Below, piece by piece: positions 1-31,948 of a DNA stretch of 31,948 nucleotides. Source of the DNA: a virus; IMG/VR virus record IMGVR_UViG_3300045988_134552, positions 1-31,948 of that record; one strand, 5' to 3'. Positions within the stretch are counted from its first letter, which is position 1, and the number at the start of each line of letters is the position of its first letter. The translations under genes and the position numbers were made by a program. The notes beneath the pieces are model-generated. The model was not told the DNA's origin, searched no databases, and saw only the letters and a list, made by a program, of their open reading frames with translations.

Positions 1-137
1 CTTCTCTCGGCCGCTTGGGGAACTGGGCTAACGGCGGTCTTTGGTTCGTTAACGGCTACAACGGCACCGGCAACGCCGGGTGGAACATCGGCTCGCGCCG
101 CTCTGCCAATGGTCGCTCTAGGGGTGAAGCGGCGTAA
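1..137 (+). CDS. C-terminal end of DGR target protein (C-type lectin-fold variable region; ends ...GNWANGGLWFVNGYNGTGNAGWNIGSRRSANGRSRGEAA*). Continuation of the ORF that starts at 30449, via circular/terminal overlap.
   Basis: The frame is open from 30449 to the window end with no stop (checked codon by codon). Bases 1-77 are identical to 31872-31948. Stop TAA at 135-137. The Asn/Gly-rich NxGxNAGxWNIGxR-type tail is typical of DGR variable proteins. Confidence 0.75.
   Translation, partial: SLGRLGNWANGGLWFVNGYNGTGNAGWNIGSRRSANGRSRGEAA
2..99 (+). repeat. DGR variable repeat (VR); a second, identical copy of bases 2-77 is at 31873-31948 (terminal overlap).
   Basis: 98-bp homology to 212-309 with 8 mismatches. 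Seven of the eight fall where the 212-309 copy has A (VR has C, G or T); the eighth is T vs C. Homology ends at 99/309 (G vs T), the expected IMH boundary. Confidence 0.85.
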
Positions 138-4218: not shown

Positions 4219-4734
4219 TTAGATGTCGAAATAGAATTCTCGCCATTTTCTAAGCTCTTCGTCGGTCATGCTTGCGGCGTAGTCGAGCAACTTTTCTTCT
4301 GTCTTCGAGCGGTCAATCATGACTTGCTCGACATAGTTTAAGTTGAACCAAAGGGAACGGTCGCTCTCAAACTCAACGCCCTTGTCCATCAGCCATTCGA
4401 AGATTTCCTCAACGCTTCCGCCGTCAATCTCCGTCCACTCGCGATAGTCTCCAGTGCTTGAAATGTCGGCTTCCATATCAACGCACCCGTTAACGTACTC
4501 GCCAGAGATAGTGATCGTCACATCGCCTTTATTGGCCGTCTCGAAAACGTAGCTCTTTGGGCTTTTCATTGCTTCCATGTCCTTTCTGATGAGGTCTTTG
4601 ATGTACTGGTTACGGTTCTCTTTGCCTCGGAAGTACTCCAGGACTTCGGCATCCGACGGGAAGAACTTCACATTAAACGACTTGACGTTCGCCTTGCGGT
4701 ACTTCTCCGTTGCCTTGCTTCGCGCGTCTGCCAT
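4219..4734 (-). CDS. Ribbon-helix-helix (CopG/Arc-like) N-terminal domain protein with an uncharacterised ~110-aa C-terminal domain; moron-like position between lysis and recombinase genes.
   Basis: KSFNVKFFPSDAEVLEYFRG...NQYIKDLIRKDME fits an RHH beta-alpha-alpha pattern. AAAGGA sits 6 nt upstream of ATG 4734; the ORF-track TTG at 4752 lacks an RBS. Confidence 0.55.
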   Translation of the reverse strand: MADARSKATEKYRKANVKSFNVKFFPSDAEVLEYFRGKENRNQYIKDLIRKDMEAMKSPKSYVFETANKGDVTITISGEYVNGCVDMEADISSTGDYREWTEIDGGSVEEIFEWLMDKGVEFESDRSLWFNLNYVEQVMIDRSKTEEKLLDYAASMTDEELRKWREFYFDI

Positions 4735-4780
4735 GCTGTATCCTTTCGTCAAAGGCTCTGGGCATCATTTCAAGGTGGGC

Positions 4781-4808
4781 GGGTTGCCCGCCGCCAAGCG
4801 GGCAACCC
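4781..4808. promoter_or_regulatory. Perfect 11-6-11 inverted repeat (GGGTTGCCCGC cgccaa GCGGGCAACCC), 47-74 bp upstream of the RHH gene start; candidate operator or recombination site.
   Basis: Read directly. No flanking T-run, so not a terminator. Confidence 0.4.
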
Positions 4809-4944
4809 TTCCGCTTACCGTCTGTTAAGAAGGCGGAAGCGGATTTGGACGGTGACTGCGAATCGCCAAACCCTGAACGTGATGCTCATTGCCTTGCTCC
4901 TTTCTATCTTTCGAAAAGCCTTATTGCCTTTCGACACTTATTAT

Positions 4945-4986
4945 TATAGGGGTACCACTATATAATACAAGCTATAGGGGTACCAC
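4945..4986. repeat. Two copies of a 14-bp direct repeat TATAGGGGTACCAC (4945-4958, 4973-4986), flanking a TATATAAT element.
   Basis: Exact repeat read from the sequence, in the AT-rich spacer between the RHH and recombinase genes. Confidence 0.5.
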
Positions 4987-5024
4987 CACACACAACAAGC
5001 ACATTTGCTGACTGTTTTTGGTTT

Positions 5025-6500
5025 TCATGTACGAATCAGTGTTATTATGCAAAACCAGTTATTGGAGACTTTGATTTCGCGCCCATTGGCGGCTATCGTA
5101 GGGTTCGCAAAGATTTTCTGAGGCTCCACCATTGGATTATTAGACGAACCCTTTTTGGGGTTCGTCTTTTTTTGTTTCGGCTGGAAGTCATCGCCACAGT
5201 AATCGAAGGCGAAGTAAAGCTTGAGTTCATCCCCATCTACTTCAATGAGCCGCACGAACGTATCGATGATTTCTGCCGCGTCTGGTTCCTGTGCGATGTG
5301 ATCGAGCCAAGCGGCTATGTCTTCACCGGACAGGTGCGCACTTTCGCTAGCCTGAGCCTGCCGCAGGTCAGCTTCTAAGGCCGCTTTCTGCTCGCGGAGC
5401 ATATCAACGCGCTCTTTACCGCCGGGCGGTGCTATGCCGTCCTCAATAGCCTGCCAGATACGCTCAAATGCAGCGTCTATGCGCTTGATCTCGCGCTCAA
5501 TGCGCTTGCTCTCCGGTTCCTCCTTCTCTTCATTAATTTCGTCGTAAAGAGCCATTGCGTCAACGATGCGCTGACGTACATCCGGCTTCTTAATCGTTTC
5601 GAGGACGGTGTCGAGCACGGCTTCCTCGACGGCATCACGCCTAAAGGTGCGGCGGCATTTCTTGCACTTGTAGTAGTGGTAGACGCGTCCCGTTTTTGAC
5701 GTGCCGCAGGTGCCAACGTAATACTGGCCGCACTCTGGGCACCACATCTTGCCAGACAACGGATAATCGTTGGTGTCACGTGTCTTGTTGTGCTTGCGCC
5801 CGTTTGAACCCAAAATGCTGTTGATCATGTCCTGGTCTTCACGCGACCAAAGCGCGGGCATGCCGTCTTCGATTCGCACGCCCGCGTAATCGTAAACGCC
5901 GCAGTTCTGTTCGCGCCTGAGCAGCTTTGTTATCACGCCATGCGTCAACGGTTTGCCGCGCTTGCCGCGTTCACCTGCGACGGCACGCTTGATTTCGGCA
6001 ACGGTCGATCCGGCAAAGAGCATGTTTTTCATACGGTGCATCACGGCGGCTTCACGCTCGTTGACCTCGTAATACCCGTTAACGATGTCCCAGCCGTAAT
6101 GAGTGCGACCGTTCGCCATGCCGCGCTGGGCGTTCTTGTTGATTCCGTCTCGGATACGCTCGCTGTCGATTGCGCTTTCCCATTCAGCAAGTACCTCGAG
6201 CATGCCAAGGTTGAGCACGCGCGTTGAGCCTTCGCCAAGGCTCTCGCCGGCATAAAGTATTTCAACACCTGCTTTGCGCAACTTGATACGCGCGAGCGCC
6301 ATTTCATCGCGGTTACGCATAATGCGCGTGACCTTATAGATAACTACATAATCAAATATTCCGAGCTTTGCGTCTTTCATCATCGCTGCCCCAGATTCCC
6401 ATGACCTGTATGTGTACTTGTTAACGCCGATTCTCTCAGCAAACTCATCCCTGTTTGAGTAACCAGCGGCTTTTCTGAGCTTCATAAGCCTAATGTTCAC
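5025..6500 (-). CDS. Chimeric XRE-HTH::large serine recombinase. The catalytic Ser N-terminal half of the resolvase domain is missing, replaced by ~45 aa of Cro/cI-type HTH; the recombinase, zinc-ribbon and coiled-coil domains are intact. Likely not an active integrase.
   Basis: N-terminus MKLRKAAGYSNRDEFAERIGVNKYTYRSWESG is an HTH_XRE match, joined directly to ...FDYVVIYKVTRIMRNRDEMALARIKLRKAGVEIL... (second half of the resolvase catalytic domain). Downstream are a recombinase domain, CPECG...CKKCRR zinc ribbon and coiled coil. The 5' ~150 nt is AT-rich, unlike the rest. Start GTG 6500 with AGGAGA RBS. Confidence 0.6.
   Translation of the reverse strand: MNIRLMKLRKAAGYSNRDEFAERIGVNKYTYRSWESGAAMMKDAKLGIFDYVVIYKVTRIMRNRDEMALARIKLRKAGVEILYAGESLGEGSTRVLNLGMLEVLAEWESAIDSERIRDGINKNAQRGMANGRTHYGWDIVNGYYEVNEREAAVMHRMKNMLFAGSTVAEIKRAVAGERGKRGKPLTHGVITKLLRREQNCGVYDYAGVRIEDGMPALWSREDQDMINSILGSNGRKHNKTRDTNDYPLSGKMWCPECGQYYVGTCGTSKTGRVYHYYKCKKCRRTFRRDAVEEAVLDTVLETIKKPDVRQRIVDAMALYDEINEEKEEPESKRIEREIKRIDAAFERIWQAIEDGIAPPGGKERVDMLREQKAALEADLRQAQASESAHLSGEDIAAWLDHIAQEPDAAEIIDTFVRLIEVDGDELKLYFAFDYCGDDFQPKQKKTNPKKGSSNNPMVEPQKIFANPTIAANGREIKVSNNWFCIITLIRT
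5142..5177 (+). terminator. Strong plus-strand intrinsic terminator embedded in the 3' end of the minus-strand recombinase ORF.
   Basis: 10-bp perfect stem AGACGAACCC / GGGTTCGTCT, loop TTTTTG, then T6-G-T3. The reverse complement has no T-tract, so it is + strand specific. Confidence 0.6.
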
Positions 6501-6531
6501 TGCTAGTCTCCTTCTCTTTCAACGTAAGTGA

Positions 6532-6560
6532 ATAGTACAACTAAAATAGCTAATTAACAA
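6532..6560 (-). promoter_or_regulatory. Candidate leftward promoter for the HTH-recombinase gene (TTGTTA-17-TACTAT on the - strand).
   Basis: -35 = reverse complement of 6555-6560, -10 = reverse complement of 6532-6537, ~25 nt upstream of the RBS and GTG 6500. Confidence 0.4.
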
Positions 6561-6618
6561 CGAAATTGTTTGTTTTCGCTTGACATAGCTATTTTAAATG
6601 TCTATCCTCTGGAACCAG

Positions 6619-6648
6619 TTGCTAAGGAGATTAGCAGCTAGCTAATAT
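6619..6648 (+). promoter_or_regulatory. Candidate rightward promoter P1 (TTGCTA-18-TAATAT).
   Basis: Sigma-70-like hexamers read directly. Upstream of the tandem operator repeat and the cro-like gene. Confidence 0.35.
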
Positions 6649-6770
6649 TTCTCGGGTAAACCCGTGAAATATACGGGTGTTCTCATTGACAAGCAATTAG
6701 AACACCCGTATATTTCTCGGGTAAACCCGTGAAATATACGGGTGTTCTCATTGACAAGCAATGAGAACAC
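6645..6770 (+). repeat. Tandem 65-bp direct repeat (~1.9 copies). Each unit holds a 12-bp-arm palindrome centred on a TTGACA hexamer; putative operators O1 (6677-6705) and O2 (6742-6770).
   Basis: Units 6645-6709 and 6710-6770 are identical except one base. GTGTTCTCATTG-acaag-CAATGAGAACAC is perfect in O2 and has one mismatch in O1. Confidence 0.75.
6686..6714 (+). promoter_or_regulatory. Candidate rightward promoter P2 (consensus TTGACA-17-TATATT). Its -35 lies inside operator O1 and its -10 is formed by the start of repeat copy 2.
   Basis: Exact TTGACA at 6686-6691, 17-nt spacer, TATATT at 6709-6714. Directed toward the cro-like gene at 6799. Confidence 0.55.
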
Positions 6771-6798
6771 ATACCACTCATTGAAGGAGGTGAAACAT

Positions 6799-7023
6799 AT
6801 GAACTTCGATAAGGAGACTTTTGCGGCGAACCTACGCGCCGCACGCGCAAAGCTCGACATAACCCAAGACGAGTTCGCGCGTCGTGCCGGTATCTCCAAG
6901 GATGCCGTTGCGAAGTATGAGAGCGGCGAGGGCTACATTCCCGGTGCCGACAAGATCATGTCTATCTGCCGAGTGGCGCATATCAGCCCCAACGACCTTA
7001 TGGGATGGAAGGAGGTTGCCTAA
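6799..7023 (+). CDS. Cro/cI-type XRE helix-turn-helix regulator (74 aa).
   Basis: GAAGGAGGTG RBS 8 nt upstream. ...ITQDEFARRAGISKDAVAKYESGE... is the canonical HTH_XRE pattern. Divergent from the HTH-recombinase gene. Confidence 0.8.
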   Translation: MNFDKETFAANLRAARAKLDITQDEFARRAGISKDAVAKYESGEGYIPGADKIMSICRVAHISPNDLMGWKEVA

Positions 7024-7103
7024 TGGATGAAGTTATCGACGTCTTGACCCTCTGGTTGTTCTTGGTATCGGCTGTTGCCGTAGGCAGGATGATCAGCAAG
7101 TAA
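7023..7103 (+). CDS. Possible 26-aa hydrophobic peptide (MDEVIDVLTLWLFLVSAVAVGRMISK).
   Basis: ATG overlaps the cro stop (TAATGG). Single predicted TM; not in the ORF track because shorter than 60 aa. Confidence 0.25.
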   Translation: MDEVIDVLTLWLFLVSAVAVGRMISK

Positions 7104-7120: not shown

Positions 7121-7510
7121 ATGTATGGAACCCAACAGCAAACCAACGGTTTGCGTCGTGGTTTTGACGAGGGGAAGTCACCGCAGGCTCGATGTTGCGC
7201 AGGTGGCATTTTGCCGGCGCGTCAAGGCTTTGATGCAAGCTTGCGAAATGAAAGCGCCCGCACCTGGCGGCAACCGGGTACGGGCTGTGTCAAAACTATC
7301 CCCAGTGATGACAACGAGAATTCTACACCATTAGCAACGGTTAAGCGGTGGTTTTGCGTCGCTATTGCCGTGCTAGCGGCAACGGGAATCCTGCCAATCG
7401 CCCTGGCTGGTGCCATTATCTGGCTTACCGAAGCATACAACCTGCCTTGGCTACCGTTCGTCCTTGCTGGGCTTGAGCTTTGGGCAATCGTCCGATTGGT
7501 CGACCAATGA
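7121..7510 (+). CDS. Hypothetical protein with C-terminal TM helices.
   Basis: AAGGAGGGG RBS 6 nt before ATG 7121. The hydrophobic C-terminal half is convincing, the N-terminal half less so. Confidence 0.4.
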   Translation: MYGTQQQTNGLRRGFDEGKSPQARCCAGGILPARQGFDASLRNESARTWRQPGTGCVKTIPSDDNENSTPLATVKRWFCVAIAVLAATGILPIALAGAIIWLTEAYNLPWLPFVLAGLELWAIVRLVDQ

Positions 7511-7713
7511 GGGGCTATCTCGACCGTGATGCAAACGGCTTCTGGGTCGCACGGGTGATCATCGATGAAGCCCGCAGACCGGGCGTTAGCGGAGCCGGAG
7601 ACGTTCGCGCGCGCCACGTGCTGCCCGTGCCGCCGTCGGCACCGCGAGAGGTCGCAGAGGTGGCGTTCAGGCGCTTTATGAGCCGCGAGGCAAGGAAGCG
7701 CCATGGATGTTGA
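7507..7713 (+). CDS. Hypothetical protein.
   Basis: ATGA start/stop overlap with the upstream gene. Start chosen by translational coupling. Confidence 0.35.
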   Translation: MRGYLDRDANGFWVARVIIDEARRPGVSGAGDVRARHVLPVPPSAPREVAEVAFRRFMSREARKRHGC

Positions 7714-8104
7714 CGATTACACCCAGCCGCTCGAATCCGTGATGCGGCAGGAGCGGTTGGCGGTGTATCCGGTACCGCTCAAGCTCAAAGACCGCCAAGA
7801 GCTGTTCGAGACGTGGTGCAAGCTCAATCCGAGGGCGCTGCGGCAGATCGAGCTCACGGCGCTCGCAATCGACCAGCGAGGTATCCGCGTGAGCACCAAG
7901 TACCTCATTGAGAAGCAGCGTTACGAGGGCATCGTAAAGCTCGTGGGCGTGCCGTTCGTGGACGGTAACGGCGTTGAGCACGTCTACGGCATTAACAATA
8001 CGGATACGCCGCTACTAGCTCGTTGGCTTCTCAAAAAACATCCGCAGCTGAATATCAAGATTCGCAATTCAATCTATGACAAGGAGAACAATCATGAAGC
8101 GTAA
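7703..8104 (+). CDS. Hypothetical early protein (133 aa).
   Basis: Overlapping start; clean ORF; no recognised motifs. Confidence 0.5.
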   Translation: MDVDDYTQPLESVMRQERLAVYPVPLKLKDRQELFETWCKLNPRALRQIELTALAIDQRGIRVSTKYLIEKQRYEGIVKLVGVPFVDGNGVEHVYGINNTDTPLLARWLLKKHPQLNIKIRNSIYDKENNHEA

Positions 8105-11385: not shown

Positions 11386-12559
11386 GGTCAAGCGCGACCC
11401 AAAGGGCGTGTGGTACGCGCAGCCGTACCTTGGCAAGGCACCGGACGGGCGGCAGATACGGCCACGTCGTAGCTTCCCGGATGCCAGGACGCGCGATGAA
11501 GCGCAGGCTTTGGCCGATGCCTGGGCTTCGCACCTGACCCTTGACGGCAAGGTCAAGAGCACGCTCATAGTCGACCTGCTTTGGGAGTACATCGAGCAGA
11601 GGATGGTGAAGGGCGTGAGCCTTAACACCGTGAAGAGGTGGTCGCTCTTCACCCGAACCTACGTTGGAAAGTATCTCAAGGGCAAAGTCGCTCGAGACCT
11701 TACCGCTATCGAGCTGAACGACTTCGAGACGCGCCTTGGCGTGAGCAAGAAGGGCGGCGGGCAGGGTCTTTCGCGCAACACGATTATCAGCGTTCACCAC
11801 TTTTTGCGCGGCGCATACAACTTCTGGGTGCGCATCGGCATCTGCGAGAACAACCCAATGCTCATGGTCACAAAGCCGCCGGAGGAACGCCATGAGGCCG
11901 TGAGCATCGACGAATGGGATTACAGGGAGCTCGATGCCACGGTCTGCGAAAAGCTCGACCTTGAGATGCCCGAGAAGCGCTTCATGCGCCAATCGGCCTA
12001 CGCTTTCGCCGCCTGGCTCGCCCTGCATACGGGGATGCGCGTCGGCGAGGTGTGCGCCGTAAGGCGGCGCGACCTCCACCGCGCACAGGGCTTCATCCTC
12101 GTGAGCGGAACGGTCATTGAGATTCCGGGCGGCGGCGTGGCCCGTTCCAACGTGACCAAGAACAAGAAGACGCGGCCCGTGGCGCTAATCGACGAAGAGT
12201 GGGAGCGGATAAGAGCCTATCTCGCGCAACAGGATTCGATTTCAGACGCTTTCACGCCCGATTCGCCACTGGTGAGCGTAGACGGCTCATACATGCGCCC
12301 CACGACCGTCTCAAAGGCTTTCAGCCGTGCTCGCGACCGGGCGGGCATGCCGAAGGCGTACACGTTCCACTCATTGCGCCATACGCACGCCACGTGGTGC
12401 CTTGCCAACGGCGTTGACCTCAAGACGCTCGCAGATCGCTTAGGGCACTCGAACGAAGCGACAACGCTGAAACTCTACGCGCACCTTCTGCCGGGGCGCG
12501 ACCAGGCTGCGGCGCAGGCGTTCAACAGTTTCGCCAAGAAGCTCGGGGACGGAGTGTAA
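11375..12559 (+). CDS. int: Tyrosine recombinase / phage integrase (394 aa) with an N-terminal arm-binding-type domain; appears intact.
   Basis: C-terminal HSLRHTHATWCLANGVDLKTLADRLGHSN...TLKLYAHLL contains the R...HxxR...Y catalytic signature region. N-terminal KGVWYAQPYLGK..GRQIRPRRSF.DARTRDEAQ resembles integrase N-terminal (arm-type) domains. Confidence 0.8.
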   Translation: MDVEVKRDPKGVWYAQPYLGKAPDGRQIRPRRSFPDARTRDEAQALADAWASHLTLDGKVKSTLIVDLLWEYIEQRMVKGVSLNTVKRWSLFTRTYVGKYLKGKVARDLTAIELNDFETRLGVSKKGGGQGLSRNTIISVHHFLRGAYNFWVRIGICENNPMLMVTKPPEERHEAVSIDEWDYRELDATVCEKLDLEMPEKRFMRQSAYAFAAWLALHTGMRVGEVCAVRRRDLHRAQGFILVSGTVIEIPGGGVARSNVTKNKKTRPVALIDEEWERIRAYLAQQDSISDAFTPDSPLVSVDGSYMRPTTVSKAFSRARDRAGMPKAYTFHSLRHTHATWCLANGVDLKTLADRLGHSNEATTLKLYAHLLPGRDQAAAQAFNSFAKKLGDGV

Positions 12560-30448: not shown

Positions 30449-31948
30449 ATGAGCAAGACGCACATCGCCGATCACGAAACGCTCGAGCGCGTCGCAATCG
30501 CGCTCGAATCCATGGGGGCTTCAACAGTCCCCATTTTTAATGACGAGACTGGACGTTATACGAATGCAAGCATCACTGCATGGCTCGCGAAGATGCGCGA
30601 CGGCAAGAACTACGGCGTTAGTATCCCAAAGGGGAGTGCCACGGCCTGCACCAAGACCGGAGCAAACGCCGGAATCGCGAATCCTAAGCCCGGCGTAATC
30701 GGTCGCGCGGCAATCGACCCGTACGTTAACCACGGCGCGTTCACCTTCTTCGAGGTGAACGGCGGCGTTGATGCGGACGGAACGCCTTATGTCACCGCAA
30801 TCGACGGTGACGGGCGCTTCTCGCGCAAGGACGACACGTGGATCATGACGCCCGTTCTCTACACGCTTGAAACCGAGACGGACGATGCCGTAAACCTCAC
30901 CGTCTCGGACACACGCCAGCCGGGCATGAAGCGGCAGCCCGCCGCACTGCTGCCGAACGGTGCGCAGCGTCCTTATATGTTGTATGCAAAGTATGCACTG
31001 TCGGTCGATGCCGAAGGCAAGCCGCGAAGCGTGAGCGGCGCGCAGGTGAAGCGCTTCGTAAGCCACGATACCGGCGTCTCGCTCATGAAAACGGCAACGA
31101 AGGGTGATTCATTCAAAACTGCCGCCGATGACTGGTATGTCAAGGTCATGTTCCTCTTGAAGTATGCCACCAAGAACAGCCAGAGCGTGTTCGCGGGCTG
31201 CACGGGATACGACGTACAGATGATCCCGACCGTGGCAGAGAGCAACACCACGCGCGTCGTGGTCGCGAAGGAGAAGGCCGATCAGATTCTTATCGGCTCT
31301 TCGATGATTCTGGGAACACATACGGGCACGTCGAACGACCGTGGCAATGGCTACAACTATGACGTGTTCGATGCCGCGACCGTTATCAAGAAGGTCGATA
31401 TCGACGCATCGAACACAGCCATATACTTCGACGTCGCGAAGCCGTTCACGACTGCCACCACATACCTTTTGAGCACCGTCCCGTGGAGGGCTGGCGCTTG
31501 CGATGCGGTTGAGGGCGACGGATCGCCGACGAGCTGCACGGACGGAAAGCAGCCCTTTGTCGTTCAGGGTATCGAGCTCGGCCTTGGAATGCTTGAGGTT
31601 CTTGGAAACGTCCTAATCCAGTACACAGGTACTGGCGCGGTCGTTTACGTGAACCCGGACACTAAGAACGAGAAGGCCGGCAGCTCACCGGACAGCGCGC
31701 TGTCTGCCGGGGCTTTTCCCGGACAAGCAGCTGAGGGATGGAATTACGCTCTTTACTGCAAGACGGTCAACGGCCTGATGATTCAGCAGGGAACGGGTGC
31801 GTCGACTTCAGTTGGCATCTGCGACGGCAACTACAAGGTCGCTGACACTACCGTCGGTTGGAGAGAGTGGCCTTCTCTCGGCCGCTTGGGGAACTGGGCT
31901 AACGGCGGTCTTTGGTTCGTTAACGGCTACAACGGCACCGGCAACGCC
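30449..31948 (+). CDS. DGR target gene (N-terminal ~500 codons). Putative receptor-binding/tail-fibre protein with a C-terminal C-type lectin-fold VR. Continues to the stop at 135-137 after the circular junction; ~519 aa in total.
   Basis: ATG 30449 directly after the upstream stop. The frame was verified open to the window end. Last gene of the tail module. VR copy at 31873-31948. Confidence 0.75.
   Translation, partial: MSKTHIADHETLERVAIALESMGASTVPIFNDETGRYTNASITAWLAKMRDGKNYGVSIPKGSATACTKTGANAGIANPKPGVIGRAAIDPYVNHGAFTFFEVNGGVDADGTPYVTAIDGDGRFSRKDDTWIMTPVLYTLETETDDAVNLTVSDTRQPGMKRQPAALLPNGAQRPYMLYAKYALSVDAEGKPRSVSGAQVKRFVSHDTGVSLMKTATKGDSFKTAADDWYVKVMFLLKYATKNSQSVFAGCTGYDVQMIPTVAESNTTRVVVAKEKADQILIGSSMILGTHTGTSNDRGNGYNYDVFDAATVIKKVDIDASNTAIYFDVAKPFTTATTYLLSTVPWRAGACDAVEGDGSPTSCTDGKQPFVVQGIELGLGMLEVLGNVLIQYTGTGAVVYVNPDTKNEKAGSSPDSALSAGAFPGQAAEGWNYALYCKTVNGLMIQQGTGASTSVGICDGNYKVADTTVGWREWPSLGRLGNWANGGLWFVNGYNGTGNA

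Follow-up and report, generated by a model that had tools for sequence, protein, structure and literature searches.

A repressor–integrase fusion gene that probably arose by a 492-bp in-frame deletion in a temperate-type Collinsella phage

The stretch of DNA analysed here, hereafter the window, is the whole 31,948-nt IMG/VR virus record IMGVR_UViG_3300045988_134552. Its open reading frame (ORF) at 5025–6500 on the minus strand encodes a protein of 491 residues in which a partial Cro/cI-type helix-turn-helix (HTH; residues 1–41) runs straight into a large serine recombinase whose first 64 residues are missing. The ORF starts with GTG, downstream of the Shine–Dalgarno sequence AAGGAG, and diverges from a cro-like gene. 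An earlier note, made from the sequence alone, had described it as an HTH passing into the second half of a resolvase domain, and had offered three explanations: a deletion fusing a cI-like repressor to the integrase gene (int) and inactivating the enzyme, a domesticated DNA-binding protein, or an assembly chimera.

Both fusion partners are truncated, the HTH as well as the recombinase. Pfam places HTH_3 on residues 5–37 with profile positions 1–32 of 55, scoring 20.1 bits where the cutoff is 23, and Resolvase (PF00239) on residues 38–128 with positions 53–144 of 145. Further along, the Recombinase domain scores 19.5 bits, slightly below its cutoff of 21.1, and Zn_ribbon_recom, at 30 bits, passes its own; PHROGs assigns the protein from residue 39 on to integrase (phrog_95, E = 2.5e-69). 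A protein search with the fusion returned 261 relatives, the closest of which, P0001 (517 residues; P-numbers denote related proteins and L-numbers the loci or contigs of relatives), is 95% identical to the int remnant and collinear with it. The P0001 motif IYARFSS (R12, S14) aligns with the catalytic IYTRVST of TP901-1 integrase and falls within the 64 residues missing from the window protein. The Y-x-R-x-S motif of a functional integrase is absent from the fusion, whose N terminus is cI sequence, and its resolvase domain is incomplete; recombinase domain, zinc ribbon and coiled coil are all present. On the repressor side, the five-helix HTH_3 domain is incomplete and the divergent layout with cro across an operator/promoter region is retained. 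The earlier description of the ORF is borne out by Pfam and by the relatives, and the alignment to large serine recombinases that the note had proposed, made here with TP901-1 and P0001, confirms that the catalytic serine region is missing. Its count of about 70 absent residues becomes 64, and the C-terminal domains that it had called intact are collinear with P0001 and match phrog_95, with a Recombinase score just under threshold.

An AlphaFold2 (AF2) model of the fusion, built on a 30-sequence alignment, gives predicted local distance difference test (pLDDT) values of 31–65 for residues 1–130, with 36–65 over the resolvase remnant, and of 75–91 for residues 140–440, which include long helices at 288–386 (pLDDT 75–90). 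This picture is mildly suggestive of an unfolded or misfolded N terminus attached to an intact DNA-binding C-terminal region. A search of the PDB found no match at E <= 1e-10, and at 0.01 it found TP901-1 and other catalytic domains.

The origin of the fusion can be read at the level of single bases. Aligned with the relative L001, the window falls into two collinear BLAST blocks that overlap by 8 nt in query coordinates: it tracks cI up to …GCA GCG ATG ATG and then continues from the same ATG ATG into int (…ATG ATG AAA GAC GCA AAG…). What is missing is L001 5703–6194, that is, 492 bp or 164 codons, in frame, comprising cI codons 42–112 (71 codons) and the stop codon, the 84-bp spacer between cI and int, and int codons 1–64. 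The junction lies on the microhomology GATGATGAA, of 6–9 nt, common to cI codons 39–42 and int codons 62–65 of the parental type, where the two copies encode Met-Met-Asn in the repressor and Met-Met-Lys in the integrase (Int). The best parental proxies, cI of L020 (GCAGCGATGATGAAT) and int of L022 (CAGCGGATGATGAAAGAC), share the direct repeat GATGATGAA over 9 nt. The first 41 residues of the fusion match the N terminus of the 112-residue repressor of the family, with one substitution relative to P0121. A deletion joining the repressor to int and inactivating the integrase, the first of the three earlier explanations, is supported to the base by these relatives.

We also considered an invertible or shuffled N terminus whose missing pieces lie elsewhere in the genome, and rejected it, since the deleted DNA and protein give only chance-level matches in the window. 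Separately, an 18-nt exact inverted match links window 12465–12482, in a tyrosine recombinase gene, with L022 6168–6185, the part of int just upstream of the deletion junction that encodes VEFQRM; at E = 0.001 in a small search it is probably due to chance, and no inversion is seen.

Among the relatives of the fusion, the closest are large serine recombinases of full length, often encoded on contigs of ~31–33 kb. L001, whose int is 95% identical, and L002 have the same gene order: a cro-like gene (74 residues), a divergent cI-like HTH gene (112 residues), int (517 or 514 residues), a small ORF and a lysin gene. Scanning bacterial genomes and IMG/VR, we found 41 close loci whose int is 82% identical or more, among Collinsella prophages and free phage contigs of ~32 kb; their hosts are Collinsella, human-gut Coriobacteriaceae. 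A full-length int, with the N terminus MPKGTRAAIYARFSS… containing YARFSS, is found in all 41, and a separate full-length gene of the cI family (110–112 residues) lies 72–393 bp upstream of int in 40; the remaining locus has almost no upstream flank. This comparison, which the earlier note had called for, thus finds separate repressor and integrase genes where the window has one. A search with the intact 112-residue repressor gave 130 homologues, of which the 120 listed all stand alone, at 85–184 residues, and the intact repressor P0121 is present on 541 contigs. By contrast, the exact fusion protein, whether written with V or M at position 1, is not on record among ~15 billion proteins, a degenerate junction pattern matched nothing in three DNA collections of viral, metagenome or genome contigs, and window 4800–7100 had no blastn match among INPHARED phage records. 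Judged from these comparisons, the window fusion looks like a one-off. Domestication as a DNA-binding protein, the second earlier explanation, does not fit a junction unique to the window among stand-alone repressors and full-length integrases.

A mis-join or a chimeric read, producing a junction present in no real molecule, would also account for an allele found in one contig only, and since L020 is the nearest relative on the cI side and L022 on the int side, a mixture of two strains present together is conceivable. Mosaicism of L020-like and L022-like segments is, however, normal for phages. Graph mis-joins occur at homologous positions over a shared k-mer, whereas the positions joined here lie 492 bp apart in every relative and share 6–9 nt; the 77-bp overlap of the window ends suggests graph assembly at k = 77, far above that length. 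Both flanks are collinear with single relatives for kilobases, the deletion measures exactly 164 codons, and an independent deletion of the same type occurs in another sample (P0094 on L003, described below). We therefore regard an assembly chimera, the third of the earlier explanations, as very improbable.

The second fusion of an HTH with a recombinase, P0094 (L003 175–1449; 424 residues on a 2.1-kb contig), joins cI residues 1–63 at GW to about int residue 160. It is in frame, comes from a more distant phage in a different sample and has the free-phage configuration; on sequence comparison it is an independent deletion of the same kind and not a conserved architecture. In a third rearranged int, P0099 (L004 4265–6336), an RNase_T-like N terminus is joined at about int residue 97, and the gene is inverted, sharing the orientation of cro. 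In these phages, int seems to rearrange easily at its 5′ end.

Two in-frame fusions raise the question of whether the product itself is selected, either as a regulator binding attP or operators or as a dominant-negative or anti-immunity factor directed against the Int or cI of resident homoimmune prophages. The reading frame and the cI expression signals are kept, the model is confident over the recombinase, zinc-ribbon and coiled-coil domains, which are intact, and homoimmune prophages are very common in Collinsella, as the 541 contigs with P0121 illustrate, so that anti-immunity would be useful. Private changes in the window int remnant (418 codons) number 3 non-synonymous and 12 synonymous, with no stops or frameshifts, against 29 and 86 in the pooled intact relatives (Fisher p = 1), and the ratio is not elevated. 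With 15 private substitutions, however, the test could hardly have revealed selection. Each fusion occurs once, the two junctions differ (residues 41/65 in the window and about 63/160 in P0094), and no fusion is found among the 120 listed repressor homologues or the 41 close int loci. The HTH remnant lacks helices 4–5 and the catalytic remnant half its beta-sheet, both with pLDDT of 31–65. One deletion in three is in frame by chance, and a protein-based search, which would overlook out-of-frame deletions, is biased towards in-frame products. A functional new protein is on balance a far-fetched explanation. Equally far-fetched is its most specific form, in which the window fusion and P0094 would be selected anti-lysogeny or anti-immunity factors, catalytically dead, att-binding and made from the cI promoter, that poison Int tetramers; if it were true, an anti-immunity fusion together with the new cro promoter described below could help a lysogeny-defective phage to prey on Collinsella with homoimmune prophages. 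Because the int remnant shows no decay or relaxed selection, the deletion looks recent, within the low power of 15 substitutions.

Coordinates of the fusion gene, of the surrounding switch and attachment site, and of the second recombinase gene are collected in Table 1.

Table 1. Features of the window considered in this analysis
Feature	Position	Strand	Evidence
Fusion ORF, 491 aa, cI(1–41)::Int(65–end); retains cI GTG start and cI ribosome-binding site	5025..6500	-	ORF, Pfam, relatives
Int-derived segment, residues 65–517 of the full-length enzyme	5025..6377	-	Pfam, P0001 identity, TP901-1 alignment, pLDDT
Candidate attP: dyad GGGTTCG-N37-CGAACCC (51 bp), centred on GGTGGAG 5124–5130, inside int 3′ end	5101..5151	-	phage/prophage homology stops at 5124
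Deletion junction on microhomology GATGATGAA, core ATGATG 6378–6383	6376..6384	-	comparison with L001, L020, L022
cI-derived 5′ segment, codons 1–41, helices 1–3 of five-helix HTH_3	6378..6500	-	HTH_3 profile 1–32 of 55; cI of L001, L002, L020
Genetic-switch intergenic region	6501..6798	.	promoter-like site, inverted repeats, palindromes
65-bp tandem duplication or near-palindromic insertion, 6645–6709 and 6710–6774	6645..6774	+	single copy in relatives
cro-like HTH gene, 74 aa from ATG at 6799 (mechanical ORF starts 6742), divergent from fusion ORF	6799..7023	+	Pfam HTH_3, E = 3e-11
Tyrosine recombinase, 394 aa	11375..12559	+	PF00589 (Pfam), phrog_1 integrase (PHROGs)

Of the resolvase domain, the Int-derived segment keeps the latter half (beta3 to alphaE); recombinase domain, zinc ribbon, coiled coil and C-terminal tail follow, and the Ser14 nucleophile and Arg12 are gone. 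Ahead of the fusion gene, the switch region has a conserved promoter-like site facing cro (TTGACA-17-TATCCT, 6580–6608), TAGCTA-type inverted repeats at 6537–6601 and large palindromes at 6645–6672, 6660–6678 and 6742–6770. In the relatives, a single promoter-like sequence points towards cro (TTGACA-17-TATCCT or TATAGT), at the position equivalent to window 6580–6608. The 65-bp unit is single-copy in L001, L002, L019 and L020 and duplicated in the window only, where the duplication doubles three overlapping palindromes; the tandem arrangement of palindromes noticed earlier between the divergent genes is real, and it results from this window-specific event. A second promoter-like site, TTGACA-17-TATATT at 6686–6714 (11/12 match), lies in the window 85 nt upstream of the cro start codon, with its -10 box straddling the duplication boundary. 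This new near-consensus promoter, downstream of the conserved one, might increase transcription of cro and the early lytic genes or release that transcription from control by the repressor, a hypothesis suggested by the sequence.

The region is also distinct in base composition. The whole window has a GC content of 0.565, the first 150 nt of the fusion ORF one of 0.45 and the intergenic region one of 0.38, so the AT-richness reported earlier holds. We rejected foreign or chimeric DNA as its source: in L001 and L020 the intact cI genes have 0.47–0.48 and the intergenic regions 0.41, equally low, and the composition is native to the region.

At the other end of the gene, the ~50-bp dyad-symmetric sequence expected of an adjacent attP is present, and the 5101–5151 dyad is probably the functional attP of the serine enzyme. 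In the prophages, the junction with the host falls within the 3′ end of int, after residue 482 (NNPMVE); junctions were compared at 7439–7514 for L020, L014, L006, L016, L011, L005, L012, L013, L021 and L017, and at 7439–7802 for L022, L008 and L027. The attB sites are the 3′ ends of tRNA-Ala(CGC), tRNA-Ala(GGC) and transfer-messenger RNA (tmRNA) genes, which have the alanine-acceptor end CTCCACCA in common, and this end is rebuilt by the phage sequence. From the T-arm CGAACCC of the tRNA to the core there are 11 nt in attL as opposed to 16 nt in attP. Such a 5-bp shift is said to be characteristic of serine-integrase attB relative to attP half-sites, and it favours, without proving, the serine enzyme as the integrase. 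The integration site follows the serine-int clade: prophages with int 94–98% identical to P0001 abut one of these three genes, and relatives at 49–61% do not. L010 represents a third integration site, which is not a tRNA gene. Serine integrases rarely use tRNA or tmRNA genes, and such use was described as unreported until then (PMC7192596).

An attP inside int means that the free-phage and prophage forms of Int differ in their tails. Comparison of window 5025–5123 and L001 7447–7554 with the sequences downstream of 7446 in L020, L017, L022 and L010 shows that the free-phage protein has 517 residues with a 35-residue tail (PQKIFANPTIAANGREIKVS…) and that the prophage proteins have 491–556 residues with short host-templated tails. 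The two isoforms might differ in stability or directionality. The switch of tails is reminiscent of integration-dependent immunity in mycobacteriophages. The position of attP may also explain the extra C-terminal Pfam domains of the distant homologues P0035, P0064, P0065 and P0076. Adjoining the attP dyad, the int coding sequence contains a perfect hairpin with an 11-bp stem at 5142–5167 (AGACGAACCC TTTT TGGGGTTCGTCT), which holds a third copy of CGAACCC/GGGTTCG; the hairpin is conserved among the relatives and may belong to a longer att site or mimic the T-arm. An HTH acquired from a host gene by integration, through an attP in the 5′ end of int, was considered and rejected: the HTH is the phage's own cI, the contig is circular and attP is intact at the 3′ end of int.

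The tyrosine recombinase, which the earlier note took as a sign that the serine enzyme is dispensable, sits in the early/replication module, with DUF3310 on one side and H2TH_5/SSB genes on the other. An intact serine int accompanies it in L001, L004 and nearly all close prophages with a flank long enough to show it, and the prophage/host junctions lie inside the 3′ end of the serine gene; that suggestion is not upheld, and replacement of the serine integrase by the tyrosine enzyme is rejected because both co-occur in intact relatives. We looked for prophages without the tyrosine gene that would tell which enzyme integrates, but almost all close ones have it and the remaining flanks are too short. 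Comparison of the relatives indicates that the tyrosine recombinase is a standard component of the family; dimer resolution and a second integration system are possible roles.

Apart from the lesion, the siphovirus genome in the window is complete and circular, with attP in the unintegrated configuration. Its ends show an exact 77-bp direct overlap (1–77 = 31872–31948), leaving ~31,871 bp of unique sequence and no host flanks. It encodes packaging and head proteins (terminase, portal, protease and major capsid protein), tail proteins (major tail protein, tape measure, Dit and Tal), holin and endolysin for lysis, and SSB, dUTPase, HNH and the reverse transcriptase (RT) of a diversity-generating retroelement (DGR). 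Prophages with int 94–98% identical to P0001 (~89–95% nucleotide identity to the window int segment) are integrated in Collinsella chromosomes at tRNA-Ala or tmRNA genes, and the family is therefore temperate. The window thus has temperate close relatives with an intact lysogeny module, and itself carries a repressor lesion in an otherwise intact, unintegrated genome.

Two further features lie outside the lysogeny module. The DGR has its template repeat at 207–309, its variable repeat at 31868..31948 joined to 1..99 and its RT at 491–1669 (phrog_1423); the repeats form a 103-nt pair with 9 mismatches, 7 of them at template A, and the variable repeat lies at the 3′ end of a tail or receptor-binding gene (at least 544 codons) that wraps around the contig ends. 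RVT_1 is found at the corresponding position in L001 and L002. Between the lysin gene and int/attP (4222–5034 region), the minus-strand ORF at 4219–4752 (177 residues), with no counterpart in L001, no PHROG match and only weak Pfam matches far under threshold, has an N terminus that looks ribbon-helix-helix-like by eye, and is probably a moron or cargo gene at an attP-proximal hotspot.

Taken together, the locus is in all likelihood a deletion allele from a temperate Collinsella phage, most likely lysogeny-incompetent, and not a designed protein. The parent would have been a temperate Collinsella siphovirus with attP/int, cI and divergent cro in this order. Loss of 492 bp between the two GATGATGAA direct repeats, by replication slippage or another form of RecA-independent illegitimate recombination as the structure of the junction suggests, would have been in frame, so that the remnants are presumably read through as cI(1–41)::Int(65–end) from the start signals of cI. 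What is known of the two families suggests the consequences: the repressor would lack helices 4–5 of its five HTH helices and the 48-residue C-terminal region, and the integrase would lack beta1, alphaA, beta2 and alphaB of the catalytic domain and, with them, the Arg-x-Ser nucleophile motif. Neither lysogeny function should work any longer. Int keeps intact C-terminal DNA-binding domains, which might still recognize attP half-sites but could not cut DNA. The genome would then represent a lysogeny-incompetent derivative, obligately lytic or of clear-plaque type, replicating in the sampled community. Since a genome with a dead Int cannot excise by itself and this one is nonetheless unintegrated, the simplest reading is that the phage replicates lytically, and a lytic lifestyle is what its sequence points to.

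Several points weigh against this interpretation. The junction rests on one assembled contig, and the allele is a singleton with no evidence of spread. The low N-terminal confidence of the AF2 model may partly stem from a chimeric, shallow alignment there. Repressor and Int might be provided in trans by a homoimmune prophage in the same host, and the existence of two independent in-frame cI::int fusions could hint at selection for the product.

The first of these points also bears on whether the deletion, if real, belongs to a dead-end, transient or helper-dependent genome, for example a variant from one induction burst or one persisting next to an intact helper prophage as its source of cI and Int. 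The apparent recency of the event and the wide occurrence of closely related intact prophages in the same host genus would suit such a fate, as does the singleton status of the allele. It is harder to reconcile with a complete circular genome assembled as a consensus, with all its other modules apparently intact, and with a second mutation of the switch, the 65-bp duplication and its new promoter, which suggests more than one evolutionary step after the temperate state was left. A genome of this kind is possible, though we consider it unlikely; the preferred reading remains a deletion derivative that replicates lytically.

Phages with comparable histories are known. Mycobacteriophage D29, derived from an L5-like temperate phage, carries a deletion of several kilobases that leaves its tyrosine integrase gene intact, whereas the window loses 492 bp and, with them, parts of a repressor and of a serine integrase, fused in frame. 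The likeness lies in the outcome, a natural lytic derivative in which a deletion removes the repressor from an otherwise intact temperate-type genome, D29 being a deletion derivative of a temperate parent (PMC5712189); its lytic phenotype has been shown experimentally, and that of the window phage is predicted. Staphylococcus phage SA97, in which cI is absent and which forms no lysogens (PMC4632378), and Oenococcus phage OE33PA, read as a spontaneous virulent mutant of a temperate ancestor (PMC6256464), likewise have temperate-type genomes with partial lysogeny modules. Both have been isolated and phenotyped, in contrast to the window phage, known from sequence. The lesions also differ: cI is absent in SA97 and attP unidentified in OE33PA, and a repressor::integrase fusion is reported for neither.

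As for the fusion partners, the C-terminal 450 residues of the window protein are those of a typical large serine recombinase such as the integrases of TP901-1, A118/LI and phiC31, encoded beside attP, but without the first 64 residues, including the nucleophilic serine and the conserved arginine, the protein cannot be a recombinase. The family as a whole departs from other large serine integrases in having attP inside the 3′ end of int and in its tRNA-Ala and tmRNA targets, which are rare (PMC7192596). Compared with Cro/cI repressors (XRE, HTH_3), the fusion gene keeps the position, start codon and ribosome-binding site of cI, and the remnant has 32 of 55 HTH_3 profile positions, without helices 4–5 and the C-terminal region. 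In lambda, cI- clear-plaque mutants lose the repressor and form no lysogens, and vir changes in cis, in operators and promoters, make early transcription insensitive to it. The 65-bp duplication with its cro-facing promoter might play a role similar to vir; lambda vir consists of operator point mutations, as opposed to a promoter-creating duplication known from sequence.

The protein architecture that first drew attention is a scar, of no significance as such. The locus is a clean, base-resolved illustration that a single step can deprive a temperate gut phage of lysogeny, with repressor and integrase both disabled by one microhomology-mediated deletion. Lifestyle predictors, seeing an integrase and an HTH repressor, would label the window genome temperate, and variants of this kind bear on prophage–host dynamics in the gut. 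To our knowledge, few or no lytic phages of Collinsella have been isolated, and a natural variant defective in lysogeny might serve as the basis for one. Beyond the fusion, the features seen in the intact family, an attP within the 3′ end of int and integration at tRNA-Ala and tmRNA genes, may hold the more general interest.

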